Shown here: piece by piece, positions 2,485 through 47,461 of the stretch
Layout of the letters: each line of letters begins with the position of its first letter
Position numbering within the stretch: the stretch's first letter is position 1
Source of the DNA: a phage
Length of the DNA stretch: 64,000 nucleotides
Direction: 5' to 3' (one strand)
Sequence record: PZ452578.1
Notes under the pieces: generated by a model
The model's input: the letters and a program-made list of their open reading frames with translations, nothing else
Database searches by the model: none
What the model was told of the DNA's origin: nothing
Translations under genes and position numbers: made by a program

Positions 2485-3065
2485 TATTCACCGCAGAATT
2501 CGTTGATATTTTCCCAGTTTAACTTATTCAAGTTTTTCTTAGGAACATTAAACACTTCAATACCTGCATTTCGCAGAATATCATCCCAGCCAGGTTTATT
2601 TTTATCATATGTTTCGCAATAAACCAGCTTTTTAATACCCGATTGAGCTATCGCTTTTGCACAATCTGGACAAGGAGAAAGTGTTACATACATAGTAGCA
2701 CCTTCAATAGAAGAACCATTTCGTGCAGCAAACAAAATTGCATTTAGCTCAGCATGAATTTCATTTTTAGACGACCATTCAGAGTGAGCGCTGCGGTGTT
2801 CTTTCGCCAAGACAAAACGATCAGTTGAACTAAATGATACACATTCGGGCTTATGACCTTGGATGATAGTATGTTTAGGTTTATTTAGCAACCAACCTTG
2901 CTCAGCAGCATAATCACAACAGTTCACACCCCCTGCGGGGGAACCATTATACCCAGTAGAAATAATACGTCCATTCTTTTCAATTACTGCTCCTACCTTC
3001 CAGGAGCAACATTTGGATTCTTGTGATACTAAATATGCAATTTGAAGTACTGTACTCGCTTTCAT
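2484..3065 (-). CDS. cd: dCMP deaminase (193 aa)
   Basis: Zinc-dependent deaminase motifs HAE and PCxxC (SPCPDCAKAI); 193 aa as T4 Cd. Confidence 0.9.
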   Translation of the reverse strand: MKASTVLQIAYLVSQESKCCSWKVGAVIEKNGRIISTGYNGSPAGGVNCCDYAAEQGWLLNKPKHTIIQGHKPECVSFSSTDRFVLAKEHRSAHSEWSSKNEIHAELNAILFAARNGSSIEGATMYVTLSPCPDCAKAIAQSGIKKLVYCETYDKNKPGWDDILRNAGIEVFNVPKKNLNKLNWENINEFCGE

Positions 3066-3400
3066 TTCATAATCACCAGATAAGCAGATTTAGCAGTTTC
3101 AACACGATAAATTTCGTGACGAAGTTTAGTTATACTTTTAATAACAGAACTAATTATATTCTGCCCATCTTTAAAGCGGTTTTTCTTATCAATAAAAACT
3201 GCGCCAACCATCTTTTTGTGAAGCTCAACTGGATACTTCGTCACAATAATAGCATCATACACAGAAGGATGAATACTATTCACCAGAGTATCATTCATTA
3301 AAGTTATTCTAATGAACTGTGCTGTTTCAGAATCAAGCGCTCTATGATCGCCAGTATCATTTTCAAGACAATTATCAATTATATCAGTTAAATTCATCAT
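3062..3400 (-). CDS. hypothetical protein (112 aa)
   Basis: Track ORF, start overlaps upstream gene stop (coupled arrangement). Confidence 0.45.
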   Translation of the reverse strand: MMNLTDIIDNCLENDTGDHRALDSETAQFIRITLMNDTLVNSIHPSVYDAIIVTKYPVELHKKMVGAVFIDKKNRFKDGQNIISSVIKSITKLRHEIYRVETAKSAYLVIMK

Positions 3401-3636: not shown

Positions 3637-4157
3637 GTTGATCCAAGCTCCTTACTTTCAACGTTTTTAACTAATTTGACAGAAACTAATTCAGCATCTT
3701 GAGTAATCATTACCGGGCCTTCTTCATACTCTTCAAGATATTCTAGAGCTTTCTTTTTAGCTTCTTCCTTCGTATCAGTTTGAGCATAGATATAGAACAT
3801 ACAACCAGTAATACCTACTACTTTCCACTTAATTTCTTTATCAGTTTTAATTTCAAATTTACTTACAGAATCATCTTTTTGAACTTCTTCGAAAAAAGAA
3901 TATTCTAACATATAAGCAATTGAAAATAGCGGGCTAACTTTATAGGATTCACCCATTACATCAACAGCTTTATACCAACAATCATCAATTTCGCGTTTAA
4001 TGCTAATAACATTTTTCGCAGGATCTATTTTTACTTTAAATGAATTTTCCCCAATAAACTGGGCAATTCGTTTATTAGCCCCGCAAGTTTCATTAAAAAT
4101 ATCTTTATATCCAGCTTTAAAGCGATAAACCTTATCTTCTTCAAACCATTCGCTCAT
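3627..4157 (-). CDS. hypothetical protein (176 aa)
   Basis: Track ORF, no recognised motif. Confidence 0.5.
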   Translation of the reverse strand: MSEWFEEDKVYRFKAGYKDIFNETCGANKRIAQFIGENSFKVKIDPAKNVISIKREIDDCWYKAVDVMGESYKVSPLFSIAYMLEYSFFEEVQKDDSVSKFEIKTDKEIKWKVVGITGCMFYIYAQTDTKEEAKKKALEYLEEYEEGPVMITQDAELVSVKLVKNVESKELGSTCY

Positions 4158-4219
4158 TTCAATTTCCTCATTTGTTTTGGTAGAGCTATAATATCATAAC
4201 TCTACCGTAAAGTAAACTA

Positions 4220-4525
4220 TTAAATCGCTTTAAATTCTGACGTCTGTGATTTAAAGCGAATGTCGCCTTTGATAACTAGCTCAGCATCAAGACCAAATAC
4301 AACAATGATATGCGCGGAACCTGGATACAGCGTAATGGCAACAGAATCCACCTGGTCTGGAAGCAAAGTGTTCAATACATGAGTCACTTGAGCATGGATT
4401 CGAAGCTCAGCTGCGTTATCAAGTTTTTCAAACATATTATTAGCGATAATTTGGCTAAACACTACTTCTACGATTTTAGAATAAGTCGGAAACATATTTA
4501 CCTCACATAATTTTCTTCGAGCCAA
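4220..4525 (-). CDS. hypothetical protein (101 aa)
   Basis: Track ORF upstream of pseT. Confidence 0.45.
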   Translation of the reverse strand: MARRKLCEVNMFPTYSKIVEVVFSQIIANNMFEKLDNAAELRIHAQVTHVLNTLLPDQVDSVAITLYPGSAHIIVVFGLDAELVIKGDIRFKSQTSEFKAI

Positions 4526-4558
4526 TTAATAATACCCAAGTTTCATGGTGCAAAGCCA

Positions 4559-5759
<1,201 letters not shown>

Positions 5760-7194: not shown

Positions 7195-8782
<1,588 letters not shown>

Positions 8783-43271: not shown

Positions 43272-43541
43272 TTATTTAAAACGAATAGTTGAATCCTTAA
43301 AGAACAGCCCAGAACATACTGTTCCTTCTACTTTCTGCCCGGTAGGTCCAATAGCACGAAATCCAGTATGCTGGAAATCATTTTCAGAGCAACCGAACCA
43401 ATTATATCCAGTGATTTCAATATTAGTAAAACCACTTGAAGACAAAACTTTAGTTGCATTATCAGCATCAGTACATCCTACTAAAGACACTGCTAATACT
43501 AATGCTGCGATAGAACGATTAATATATTTCATAATTTTCAC
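43272..43541 (-). CDS. putative lipoprotein (89 aa)
   Basis: Signal peptide and lipobox SLVGC; hairpin immediately downstream. Confidence 0.5.
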   Translation of the reverse strand: MKIMKYINRSIAALVLAVSLVGCTDADNATKVLSSSGFTNIEITGYNWFGCSENDFQHTGFRAIGPTGQKVEGTVCSGLFFKDSTIRFK

Positions 43542-43909
43542 TTAAATTTAATGGCTTGAAGAAGACTAATAACTCTCAAGCGACTTCTTTCATCTTTAAC
43601 TGTAAAGGAAAGAGGGTCACCAGATTTCATAGTGATAGTACATGCAAAATCAAAATCTTCTGTGACTTCTTCGAAGAAGTCAAATTCTTCATCATAAATT
43701 AGAACACTACTTTGCAGACTGTGAAGAGTTTTTCCAGCATTTCCAGATGCTGTACCAATCATTGTAACATTATGACCTTTCATATCTTCAACGATAAATT
43801 CACTAGTCAATATTACAGCATTAATAGAACTATTCCTATTACTAGCAGAAAGTAGAAATTTCTGTTCTTCACCTTCGCGAATACGATATTTCTTACCCAT
43901 TTTAAACAT
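43538..43909 (-). CDS. hypothetical protein (123 aa)
   Basis: Track ORF. Confidence 0.45.
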   Translation of the reverse strand: MFKMGKKYRIREGEEQKFLLSASNRNSSINAVILTSEFIVEDMKGHNVTMIGTASGNAGKTLHSLQSSVLIYDEEFDFFEEVTEDFDFACTITMKSGDPLSFTVKDERSRLRVISLLQAIKFK

Positions 43910-44090: not shown

Positions 44091-44510
44091 TTATTCCTTA
44101 AAATGTGCTTTCAACATCTGATACAAGGACCATGCCTGTTCATTATTTTCAATAGTAACTTTCATTACCGGGAATTCTGTGAAATCTTCTATTTGTTCTT
44201 GCTCTTCCTGCTCTTGTTCTTTAGCATCCTGATATGGATTTTCAACTTCATCAAAGAACCCAGCTTCGTTAGTAGAAAGCCAGATAAAGTTTTCGTCAAG
44301 GATATCACCATGTGTTGCATATCCAACTGTGCCAGTAGATGTCACAATTTTAGTAGGACGACCAAGATAGTCAACATCTAAAATTTTAAAAGGATGCATA
44401 CCTAAACGGCGTGCATAGATTCCGTTATCAGTATGGTCTTTAATAAAATTTTCTTGAGCCTGTTTATTTTTAAATTGATACCATTTATTAACTTCAAATT
44501 TAATAGCCAT
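44091..44510 (-). CDS. hypothetical protein with acidic EQEQEEQEQ tract (139 aa); goF position
   Basis: Track ORF; naming by position only. Confidence 0.4.
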
Positions 44511-44738: not shown

Positions 44739-45020
44739 TTAATTGAACAGTGGAGCGATACGTTTCAGAAGAGTAGCAGCACCTTTAGCGAATTTTACAT
44801 CATGAAAAACAGTTTCTTCTTCTGTAACAACTCGAACTTTAATATTTTCGCAATCCCAATTTTTGCGAACAATCTTCAAAAGCTGCAGTAAATCTTTACA
44901 TTCAGCAATATCGATAACACATCCACGAGAATCTTCCATTATCGCACGATAACCGTAAGCTATACCATAATCGTTGAAAGATTGCTCGATGATGATTAAG
45001 TTTTCCATTTTATTCTCCAA
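44739..45020 (-). CDS. hypothetical protein (93 aa)
   Basis: Track ORF with GGAGAATAAA SD. Confidence 0.45.
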   Translation of the reverse strand: MENKMENLIIIEQSFNDYGIAYGYRAIMEDSRGCVIDIAECKDLLQLLKIVRKNWDCENIKVRVVTEEETVFHDVKFAKGAATLLKRIAPLFN

Positions 45021-45105
45021 GTTGTTTTCTATATCAGTAGTTGATATTGATATAGTACCATAATCAACTACTGATGTATATAGTTTTATGAAAAAATTTT
45101 AAACT

Positions 45106-45594
45106 TTATGCATAGAGAGCATTGCTATAGTGTTTAATCCAACTTTCAGGAATGACTTTGTATGTTCCTAAAAATACCACGTTGTACAACTTAACGCCAT
45201 CTTCTACCCATTGATCGGTAATGTATCCACACATAGCGCGAGTATAAACAGCCTTTCCATCATCTTTGATAAATTTAAATTCACAAGGAGCAATGAACTT
45301 AATAGCTTGACCGAGTTTCCACTTAAAGTCTACACCTACATGCGAAGTATCAATCGTTTCAATTCCTTTAGCGGGAACAGCTTTCAAAAACGCAGATTCA
45401 AGAAATTTCGCACGAACATAGCCAAACTGAGGTTTAGACTTTCCATCTTTAGGAATGATACGCACTTTTACTTCAGAATCTTCATCTTTAACACCATGTT
45501 TAAGCTGAATGCTTACAATTTCGACCAATTTTCCTGCTGCTTTAGAACGGGATTTATCAGATACACGAGCAATTTCACCAATATTAATAATCAT
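45106..45594 (-). CDS. motB: MotB-like protein (162 aa)
   Basis: 162 aa and position as T4 MotB; early promoter 45639-45668. Confidence 0.5.
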   Translation of the reverse strand: MIINIGEIARVSDKSRSKAAGKLVEIVSIQLKHGVKDEDSEVKVRIIPKDGKSKPQFGYVRAKFLESAFLKAVPAKGIETIDTSHVGVDFKWKLGQAIKFIAPCEFKFIKDDGKAVYTRAMCGYITDQWVEDGVKLYNVVFLGTYKVIPESWIKHYSNALYA

Positions 45595-45638
45595 AGTTAT
45601 CTCTCACTTGTTAAAAAGATTTTATACTCCACAGGACC

Positions 45639-45668
45639 ATTATACTCTGGCCCCAAGAGTTTGTAAAC
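45639..45668 (-). promoter_or_regulatory. T4-type early promoter for motB
   Basis: GTTTACA, 17-nt spacer, TATAAT. Confidence 0.55.
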
Positions 45669-45670
45669 TA

Positions 45671-46210
45671 TTAATTCAAAATAGCTACCACTGCACTACG
45701 AGGTACTACACTAAAATCGCCTGCATGAACAACATTCAGAAGTTCAACGCCATCTTCAATCCATTGGTCTGTTACCCAACCACAGACCGAAATAAATGGA
45801 GTCTTGATAGCTACCGCATGAGTTAGAAGGTCAGTAGGATCAACTTCTTTGAAGAGGATAAGCTCTGCTTCAAAAACTATAGTTTTAATTACTTCATCAT
45901 TATCTAAACGTTGTACTCGAATCACGTAAGCTTTATTCTTATCATACCAGTTACTTTTTGAAAAGCTTTTAACCACAAACTCGCCTTCACCAAAAGCATT
46001 AGTCAATGCTTTATAACCCAAATTTAGTTCAGTAGTTTTAATTTCAGTTTCAACCAGTTTGTAGGTTTTGCCGATTTCAATAGCGGTAGTCATAGTAGGT
46101 TCCTTAATTTCCAGTGGTTTAACAGGGCATACATAAGTGCTTACAACATCAAAATCAATCAGTTTAGCTACCGGATTTGGTATGTATTCAGGATTATAAT
46201 TAAATTTCAT
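45671..46210 (-). CDS. hypothetical protein (179 aa) sharing C-terminal domain with MotB-like ORF
   Basis: C-terminal CGWVTDQWIEDGVELLNVV aligns with CGYITDQWVEDGVKLYNVV of 45106-45594. Confidence 0.5.
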   Translation of the reverse strand: MKFNYNPEYIPNPVAKLIDFDVVSTYVCPVKPLEIKEPTMTTAIEIGKTYKLVETEIKTTELNLGYKALTNAFGEGEFVVKSFSKSNWYDKNKAYVIRVQRLDNDEVIKTIVFEAELILFKEVDPTDLLTHAVAIKTPFISVCGWVTDQWIEDGVELLNVVHAGDFSVVPRSAVVAILN

Positions 46211-46212
46211 AA

Positions 46213-46713
46213 TTATCTCATTTCAATAAAATCTACGAGTTCAGCATGCGATTTGCGGAACATTACTTGATGCCCACCAATGATAACTTCATCTTCAGGA
46301 ACTTCGTATACAGCGAGATAAAATCCTTTAGAAGATAATTCTTCCCGCTCTTCTCGTGTGAACCATCTCATCATATCATATTCGCTAGCGAAACCAAAAT
46401 GATAAAGAGCTATAAACCATCCTGGAATATGATATTCTACTCCAACATAATCTTTCTTGAACTTAGTATTAATTACTATATTAGCGTTTTTAACTAATAG
46501 TTTATCTTCGTGTGGTAAAGGAATTCTTTTATTATTATCGCTATGATGCATAAAATTAGGTCTGTCATAACCTACGTGTAATAGCCACTCTTCGCTCCAT
46601 GAATCTATTATACTTCTATACGGCGTTATTTGAACACAAAGATTTCGACGTATTGTTATAGCATCTTCATAATTAAGAATACTAAACGATGATTCAACAC
46701 GATAAATTTTCAT
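46213..46713 (-). CDS. hypothetical protein (166 aa)
   Basis: Track ORF; early promoter 46742-46771. Confidence 0.45.
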   Translation of the reverse strand: MKIYRVESSFSILNYEDAITIRRNLCVQITPYRSIIDSWSEEWLLHVGYDRPNFMHHSDNNKRIPLPHEDKLLVKNANIVINTKFKKDYVGVEYHIPGWFIALYHFGFASEYDMMRWFTREEREELSSKGFYLAVYEVPEDEVIIGGHQVMFRKSHAELVDFIEMR

Positions 46714-46777: not shown

Positions 46778-47461
46778 TTATCGTTTTGTTGGAAGAGATA
46801 GAGGATCGCATTCTTCCTCTGATGGAGCGTCTTCTAGACCCATAGCATAGCGCAAAGCATACTTCATCATCAGGATGTCTTTTGCACAGTCATGAATGGA
46901 ATCATGCGCAACAAATCCATCTAAAGTTCCCTTTGGAAGTGGGCAAGTGGTCATATCACGAACAAGGAGAAGTGCTTCAATTCTAGTACGAATATCACGC
47001 TGATTCCAGAATTTACATGGTTCTAACTTAAACGTATCAAGCTCATTCTCAGAAACACCATTAAGGCGTTGAATATCACGAATGAGATCGACTAAAATTG
47101 GAAAATCAAACGACATTCCACGGCACCAGCCTTGAGATTTCCAAGGATCGATATTATGTGCATTGATGTAATCATTAAATTTTGCAATACCGTCAATAGT
47201 GCTTACATCTTCATCTGATGGTGCAATATTTTTTCTAGCTTCAGGTGATTGATTTTTCCACCATTCAATAGTGCTTTTAGTAAAAAGACGATGTCCTTTT
47301 TGGCTTTTTAAATCAAATTTGATTTTAATGCCACGTGAAACTAATTCATCAAATGTTTCAACAACTTCTGGGTTAGGGTCAAAGGCAATAACAGCCAAAT
47401 CAATAACCGCTGCTTTTTCACCGCTTCCCATTGTTTCAAAATCTATAATAAAATCAAACAT
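46778..47461 (-). CDS. dexA: exonuclease A (227 aa)
   Basis: 227 aa; DEDD-like N-terminus FDFIIDFETMG; position. Confidence 0.8.
   Translation of the reverse strand: MFDFIIDFETMGSGEKAAVIDLAVIAFDPNPEVVETFDELVSRGIKIKFDLKSQKGHRLFTKSTIEWWKNQSPEARKNIAPSDEDVSTIDGIAKFNDYINAHNIDPWKSQGWCRGMSFDFPILVDLIRDIQRLNGVSENELDTFKLEPCKFWNQRDIRTRIEALLLVRDMTTCPLPKGTLDGFVAHDSIHDCAKDILMMKYALRYAMGLEDAPSEEECDPLSLPTKR

Follow-up and report, generated by a model that had tools for sequence, protein, structure and literature searches.

The motB gene of bacteriophage T4 encodes a protein with tight, non-specific DNA binding, which co-purifies with H-NS and StpA and for which toxicity on overproduction and a doubled burst size have been reported (PMC6070864). 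T4 MotB also changes the footprint of H-NS and de-represses H-NS targets (PMC7827196). MotB and MotB.1 of T4 have a common conserved C-terminal domain and differing N-terminal domains, and one of them may derive from duplication of the other (PMC7827196, section 3.2, Viruses 2021). In the same study, 102 homologues were sorted into four categories. Deletion of motB.1 leaves burst size and latent period unchanged, and GoF and MotB.1, together with Frd.2, have been described as a family with an 'LSm-like fold', the N-terminal domain of which is a bent five-stranded antiparallel beta-sheet (PMC12152347). Both motB and motB.1 are early, dispensable genes. The present analysis concerns a pair of neighbouring open reading frames (ORFs) on the minus strand of a 64,000-nucleotide stretch of phage DNA (sequence record PZ452578.1, hereafter the window), encoding proteins of 162 amino acids (aa) (45106-45594) and 179 aa (45671-46210). 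With a probability of about 85%, the two are the known motB and motB.1 of T4-like phages, issued from an old tandem duplication, with later exchange of N-terminal modules and a presumed difference in function.

The window belongs to a Tequatrovirus. A 2.1-kb query spanning the locus matched 566 phage records, all T4-like (Tequatrovirus and relatives), the closest being Escherichia phage ECO4 (97.6%). On the minus strand, the order is dexA (46778-47461), a 166-aa ORF (46213-46713), the 179-aa ORF, the 162-aa ORF, a 93-aa ORF, cef and goF; the annotation of the T4 reference reads dexA, motB.2, motB.1, motB, cef, goF. The 162-aa protein (isoelectric point (pI) 9.3) is 97% identical to T4 MotB, from which it departs by only 5 substitutions. 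It occupies the same position behind the same predicted early promoter, and is recognized by phrog_1671 (E 7.7e-78) and by Pfam PF17613, which covers it end to end (aa 1-162 against profile positions 1-162, 368 bits, E 5.8e-111, for a gathering score of 25). The 179-aa protein (pI 4.9; phrog_2333, E 1.3e-80) is encoded directly upstream of motB and downstream of motB.2, that is, at the position of T4 motB.1. In the first-pass annotation of the window, this paralogue was described as following motB; transcription from the minus strand reverses this order and puts it upstream. In phage CM8, a gene of the 179-aa type is annotated as 'motB-like protein'. A sigma-70 promoter of early type, TTTACA-17-TATAAT (45639-45667, minus strand), is predicted directly upstream of motB, just past the stop codon of the paralogue. 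It matches 11/12 consensus positions, is the best candidate of the region and is identical in T4; from this consensus match, it would act as an early promoter.

That the 162-aa and 179-aa proteins end in a common block had been noticed in the first-pass annotation. Both ORFs are indeed present, as are the peptides quoted from them, and BLASTP aligns MotB 120-151 with paralogue 141-172 (18/32 residues identical, 26/32 positive, 0 gaps, E 2e-12). As delimited by hhalign and BLASTP, the block comprises aa 120-155 of MotB (AMCGYITDQWVEDGVKLYNVVFLGTYKVIPESWIKH; 45130-45237, minus strand), where it reaches from the last part of strand 2 up to and including strand 5, and aa 141-176 of the paralogue (SVCGWVTDQWIEDGVELLNVVHAGDFSVVPRSAVVA; 45683-45790, minus strand). 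The Smith-Waterman score is 115, to be compared with 30.0 +/- 4.8 (maximum 62) over 2000 shuffles (z 17.7). Alignment of the two family profiles by hhalign, built from 44 MotB and 31 paralogue sequences, extends over 36 columns with a probability of 98% and an E value of 6.9e-14. Pairwise and profile alignment, which the same annotation had proposed as a check, thus agree on a significant similarity. With a score of 34 bits for a cut-off of 25, the Pfam motB model also matches the paralogue, at aa 141-174 and through profile positions 120-153 only. The paralogue is to be considered as sharing a domain with MotB, not as an orthologue. All 544 ORFs of the window were searched for a further occurrence of the block and of each N-terminal domain, and none was found.

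Pairwise methods detect the last 32-36 residues alone. PHROG profiles, intermediate sequences and the strands of AlphaFold2 (AF2) models widen the homology to the entire C-terminal domain. The proposal of a shared domain had been presented as refutable by a loss of significance over this full length; phrog_2333 matches MotB at 79-152 (E 4.1e-12) and phrog_1671 matches the paralogue at 116-177 (E 8.1e-17). Bridging sequences (entries P0232, P0236 and P0237) associate a start (DPTDLL) and an end (VELLNVV) of the paralogue type with a long hairpin resembling that of MotB. On these grounds, the entire C-terminal domain is homologous between the two proteins. In MotB, a KOW/SH3-like barrel takes up aa 1-68 at the N-terminus; it is followed by a disordered linker (aa 69-89) and, over aa 90-162, by a C-terminal domain of five strands. 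In its AF2 model (predicted local distance difference test score, pLDDT, 81), strands lie within 8-67 and 97-156 and residues 70-83 score below 50; the C-terminal strands (97-109, 115-131, 134-141, 144-149, 153-156) are modelled with a pLDDT of about 90. The C-terminal domain of the paralogue (aa 124-179; 45674-45841, minus strand), which starts with DPTDLL, has five predicted strands (132-136, 141-152, 155-162, 165-170, 174-178, at low confidence) and a short beta1-beta2 hairpin. In the alignment, the long lysine-rich beta1-beta2 hairpin found only in MotB (aa 90-119; 45238-45327, minus strand), with 7 Lys/Arg counted from the translation, is cut down to a few residues in the paralogue. This same paralogue domain is 66% identical to that of the 143-aa form of T4 MotB.1 over 74 aa (E 7e-31). 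By its C-terminal domain, which is MotB-like and of subtype DPTDLL...GWVTDQWIEDGVELLNVVH, and by its non-MotB N-terminal domain, the 179-aa protein belongs to the MotB.1 group.

The N-terminal halves had been called unrelated. At the sequence level this stands, no significant similarity between that of MotB and that of the paralogue being found by BLASTP, hhalign or an N-terminal-only profile; the qualification comes from modelling, by which both halves are predicted to be small beta-barrels. In the case of MotB, the likeness to tandem KOW/Tudor/PWWP barrels (SPT5 KOW6-7, 5ohq; 53BP1 tandem Tudor, 3lgf; NusG KOW, 2xhc) comes with 11-23% identity. A sequence search of the PDB with MotB gave no match (best E 0.65) and the Pfam KOW model did not match its N-terminal domain. 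The likeness is therefore one of fold only, and does not make MotB a member of these families. The N-terminal domain of the paralogue (aa 40-123; 45842-46093, minus strand) follows a strand-helix-four strands order in the AF2 secondary structure, with strands at 49-52, 77-85, 94-101, 107-113 and 120-122 and a helix at 60-73 (pLDDT about 65). The model of the whole 179-aa protein, with a pLDDT of 55 overall, is too poor for a fold search. The order of these elements, ending in ..LF.EV, fits the N-terminal domains described for GoF and MotB.1 as well as Frd.2 (PMC12152347). The domain is probably a divergent 'LSm-like' barrel of this family, the model being of low confidence and the sequence statistics falling short.

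Profile links to that family are weak. The full-length profile alignment with the T4-type MotB.1 family runs past the C-terminal domain into aa 73-123 (36-86 in T4). An N-terminal-only profile of the 179-aa family is clearly related to the barrels of P0240, P0233 and P0229, and gives a weak full-length match to another ORF of the window, at 43538-43909 (E 1.3e-3). Against single sequences, the same profile gave nothing significant with the N-terminal domain of T4 MotB.1, GoF, the N-terminal domain of MotB, MotB.2 or the 93-aa ORF. The N-terminal domain of T4 MotB.1 differs from that of the window paralogue, with no BLAST similarity between them, and the window type is the commoner in databases, with 197 proteins versus 24 for the T4 type. 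The former are the homologues of the 179-aa protein, nearly all of them 176-183 aa long among the 120 matches listed. The presence of the paralogue in other T-even genomes, another check suggested in the first-pass annotation, is borne out by these homologues and by T4 motB.1 at the same position. Phage RB51 has three family members in tandem (169, 157 and 139 aa; retrieved stretch 3665-5149).

Sliding identity along a MAFFT alignment of the window with T4 (NC_000866) shows how the two loci diverge. Identity is 93% or more all along motB.2, and returns to this level at about 45780, where it holds until motB ends. In between, a cassette of about 450 bp (45790-46240, minus strand) is unrelated to T4; it encodes the N-terminal extension of the paralogue, its N-terminal domain and the beginning of the MotB.1 C-terminal domain. 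Its breakpoints are at the motB.2/motB.1 junction and at the start of the shared block. Because one breakpoint coincides with the start of the block, this conserved segment probably acts as a recombination site at which N-terminal cassettes are swapped. The earlier proposal, in which an early accessory locus underwent duplication or a shuffling of domains, is thus supported by the C-terminal homology, by the cassette relative to T4 and by the other barrel combinations of the family. In the mechanism envisaged here, an old tandem duplication would have produced two genes that both retain, at the C-terminus, a small domain of beta-strands (about 55-75 aa). The N-terminal modules would have been exchanged later by recombination, the conserved C-terminal coding sequence serving as one crossover site. 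MotB would then associate a basic KOW/SH3-like barrel with a lysine-rich hairpin inserted into the C-terminal domain. The paralogue would be made of a short acidic extension carrying DxDVxS[MT]Y, a probable GoF/LSm-like barrel and a hairpin-less acidic C-terminal domain.

The spread of the family was assessed by an exhaustive search of 1.84 billion representative proteins with a profile of the C-terminal domain (E<=1e-3). Of the 36 clusters obtained, about 27 are real, and every named member comes from T4-like phages. Long repeat proteins (P0244, P0247, P0250-P0253 and P0255-P0258; 466-4374 aa, with 2-12 matched stretches each) were treated as spurious matches to 'GY.T.QWV.D' repeats. KOW-like barrels are joined to a MotB.1-type C-terminal domain in P0230, P0231, P0241, P0245 and P0246, and subtypes of the other barrel to the same domain in P0235, P0039, P0239 and P0240; in P0229 and P0233, tandem barrels precede the C-terminal domain. 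In the phage collection, this domain was found at 1742 places in 836 records, all T4-like (Straboviridae and close relatives such as Marfavirus). In Klebsiella phage Marfa (retrieved stretch 2773-3150) and Kanagawavirus Q7622 (2731-3225), motB is absent and the family is represented by one gene of MotB.1 type; this suggests that, of the two forms, the MotB.1 type is the older. The family also includes an apparent chimeric remnant, P0248 (43 aa), in which residues 1-17 of MotB.2 (MKIYRVESSFSILDYED) are fused directly to GVELLNVVHAGDFSVVPRSAVVAILN. It looks as if two short 'ED' micro-homologies had bounded a deletion that removed most of motB.2 and motB.1, and is reminiscent of a 29-aa RB69 peptide placed in Category 3 (PMC7827196).

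The 39-aa N-terminal extension of the paralogue (46094-46210, minus strand) sets it apart from T4 MotB.1, which lacks it. It is kept as protein in 31 aligned homologues, down to 72% identity, and contains a conserved motif, LIDFDVVSTYVCPVKPLEI, at aa 17-35 (46106-46162). The near-constant length among the matches listed agrees with its presence throughout. The motif core, D.D[VILT].[SAHC][MTAL][YF], occurs in 122 of 246 family proteins for 0.3 expected by chance, an expectation that is generous since the pattern was picked after viewing the sequences. A fuller form, D.D[VIL].S[MT]Y..[TP]..P[LI], is met with in roughly half of the MotB/MotB.1 family, and its place varies: at the N-terminus, in the linker directly before the C-terminal domain (P0231, P0237, P0239, P0241), or between two barrels (P0229). 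Long variants of MotB have a related insert, SHDGYVCESNDIRGVVAQ, at the same linker position. From its distribution in sequences, DxDVxS[MT]Y may be read as a further conserved element, the third in this family, and a mobile one.

The T4 reference sequence itself calls for a remark. In NC_000866/AF158101, one extra G follows nucleotide 345 of motB.1 (TGGATTGGAAGATGG), and the ORF ends at 119 aa (...WIGRWR*), the gene lying at T4 7291-7650 on the minus strand (NC_000866.4; retrieved stretch 2792-3151). The equivalent site of the window is at about 45762-45775. Past the extra G, the DNA still codes for EDGVELLNVVHAGEYSVVPRSAVVAILN in another frame. With the same query, the remaining 13 records (T4, T4T, RB55 and RB59) match over a length reduced by one base, and two of the records without the G, MT984581 and OZ209023, were checked directly; both are annotated with 143 aa and a full MotB-like C-terminal domain. 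In a large protein collection, 256 contigs carry the 143-aa form and 2 carry the 119-aa form. In the published study of MotB.1, the protein was given as 13.8 kDa, gene synthesis was used and NC_000866.4 coordinates were cited for T4 fragments (PMC12152347). In view of this mass and of the coordinates cited, the published MotB.1 constructs were probably truncated, apparently through use of the reference sequence, and without most of the shared domain. The literature found naming motB.1 makes no mention of a frameshift in this gene.

The relationship between MotB and MotB.1 through a shared domain is not new. It was published in 2021 (PMC7827196), and proteins of the window type (ECML134_009, UFV13 g011, RB14 RB32ORF010c) are included in Table S4 of that study, so that the pair was already known. 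To repeat a published result has little weight in itself; two by-products are potentially useful to workers on T4 early genes. Constructs synthesised from NC_000866 lose most of the domain shared with MotB. Also, an acidic shared core, with the basic residues of MotB outside it, gives a simple basis for domain dissection of DNA binding. This charge contrast between MotB and the paralogue is new here. The pI values are 9.3 for MotB, 9.75 for its N-terminal domain, 8.9 for its C-terminal domain and 5.5 for its shared block; for the paralogue, they are 4.9 overall, 4.3 for the C-terminal domain and 4.1 for the block. Among the Lys/Arg of the MotB C-terminal domain, 7 fall in the hairpin that the paralogue is missing.

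The functions of T4 MotB, namely DNA binding and association with H-NS/StpA, are assumed to hold for the 97%-identical orthologue of the window. DNA binding by MotB would rest on the basic N-terminal barrel and on the hairpin. The shared acidic core would be, in both proteins, a structural or protein-contact module and not a DNA-binding surface; were this so, the paralogue would not simply be a second DNA binder. More likely, it would supply the same partner or complex with a different ligand-binding barrel, for RNA or protein. One may go further and imagine, as a speculation of low probability, that the family is assembled from three mobile parts: a barrel, either KOW-like or LSm-like, the DxDVxS[MT]Y peptide and the acidic C-terminal barrel, the last two docking on a common partner. 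If so, the partner might be the other member of the pair, MotB and MotB.1 forming heteromers, or a nucleoid protein of the host, for example H-NS or StpA. The cargo would be set by the exchangeable barrel, DNA for MotB and RNA or protein for MotB.1, and the published tests of T4 MotB.1, apparently made with the 119-aa form, would miss the activity.

Other readings of the locus have to be weighed against duplication followed by module exchange. With regard to function, the shared C-terminal domain could itself be a DNA-binding OB-fold, a proposal made for MotB in 2021, both proteins then being nucleoid or DNA binders with an accessory N-terminal domain as their sole difference. By HHpred, aa 69-149 of MotB were placed in the OB-fold family of cold-shock/eIF5A type (PMC7827196), and the C-terminal domain of MotB as a whole is basic. 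This idea is considered unlikely. With regard to gene limits, the 179-aa ORF might be over-called. Translation would start at Met40 and the product, of 140 aa, would be collinear with T4 MotB.1, an untranslated leader accounting for the initial 117 nucleotides. Indeed, an AAGGA Shine-Dalgarno sequence stands 7 nucleotides upstream of this ATG, the AF2 model is disordered over the extension (pLDDT 28 for aa 1-41), the alignment with T4 MotB.1 begins at about Met40, 39 residues into the ORF, and one database entry, P0108, has an annotated length of 140 aa. Against this, the first ATG is found 2 nucleotides past the motB.2 stop, a spacing compatible with translational coupling, and the extension is open and conserved as protein in the aligned homologues, with the lengths mentioned above. 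Moreover, DxDVxS[MT]Y recurs inside the linker and tandem-barrel proteins named above, where its translation is obligatory. An untranslated leader thus appears rather improbable; because of the good Shine-Dalgarno sequence and the disordered extension, a shorter product made from Met40 is nevertheless possible.

As to the origin of the block, recent gene conversion or recombination between adjacent genes might be invoked in place of an old duplication under selection. T-even genomes recombine readily. The two genes are adjacent in the same orientation, and an exact match of 12 nucleotides (GAAGATGGCGTT) occurs between them. The codon evidence goes the other way: the block has 53% nucleotide identity between the two genes and 33% at third codon positions, and the same codon is used at 9/18 identical residues. 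Such values point to an old duplication held by selection at the protein level. In addition, the C-terminal subtypes KLYN.VF and ELLNVVH are each conserved across many phages. Recent conversion is consequently rejected as the source of the block, its probability being very small. Still less credible is a chance or low-complexity match, for which the shortness of the block (32-36 aa) might plead; it is refuted by BLASTP, by the shuffles, by hhalign and by the Pfam and PHROG cross-matches, and no other ORF of the window matches the block.

Some features of the neighbourhood may finally be mentioned. MotB.2 (46213-46713, minus strand) has a weak Pfam match to SRA (SET and RING associated), far below the cut-off (E 0.098, 13 bits); it has no other support and is probably noise, and a sequence search of the PDB with MotB.2 gave nothing. 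Were the match true, it would be of interest to see a phage with modified cytosine encode a base-flipping reader domain. Downstream of motB, an inverted repeat (45030-45078) occupies the intergenic region before the 93-aa ORF. As minus-strand RNA, it would form a perfect stem of 13 bp and an inner stem of 5 bp (-21.6 kcal/mol, z -4.7 against shuffles); it is unlike a classical terminator because no T-run follows the stem. The 93-aa ORF (44739-45020, minus strand; phrog_3720) lies between cef and motB, where the T4 reference shows just a 170-nucleotide gap; in RB51 and CM8, a gene of 270 nucleotides is annotated at this position. Further on, the ORF at 43538-43909 (minus strand, 123 aa), missing from the T4 annotation and named RB32ORF005c in RB51, matches the goF PHROG (phrog_13003, E 6.9e-9, aa 1-88). 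It is located two genes downstream of goF (44091-44510), with which it forms a second neighbouring pair of paralogues having a common barrel domain.
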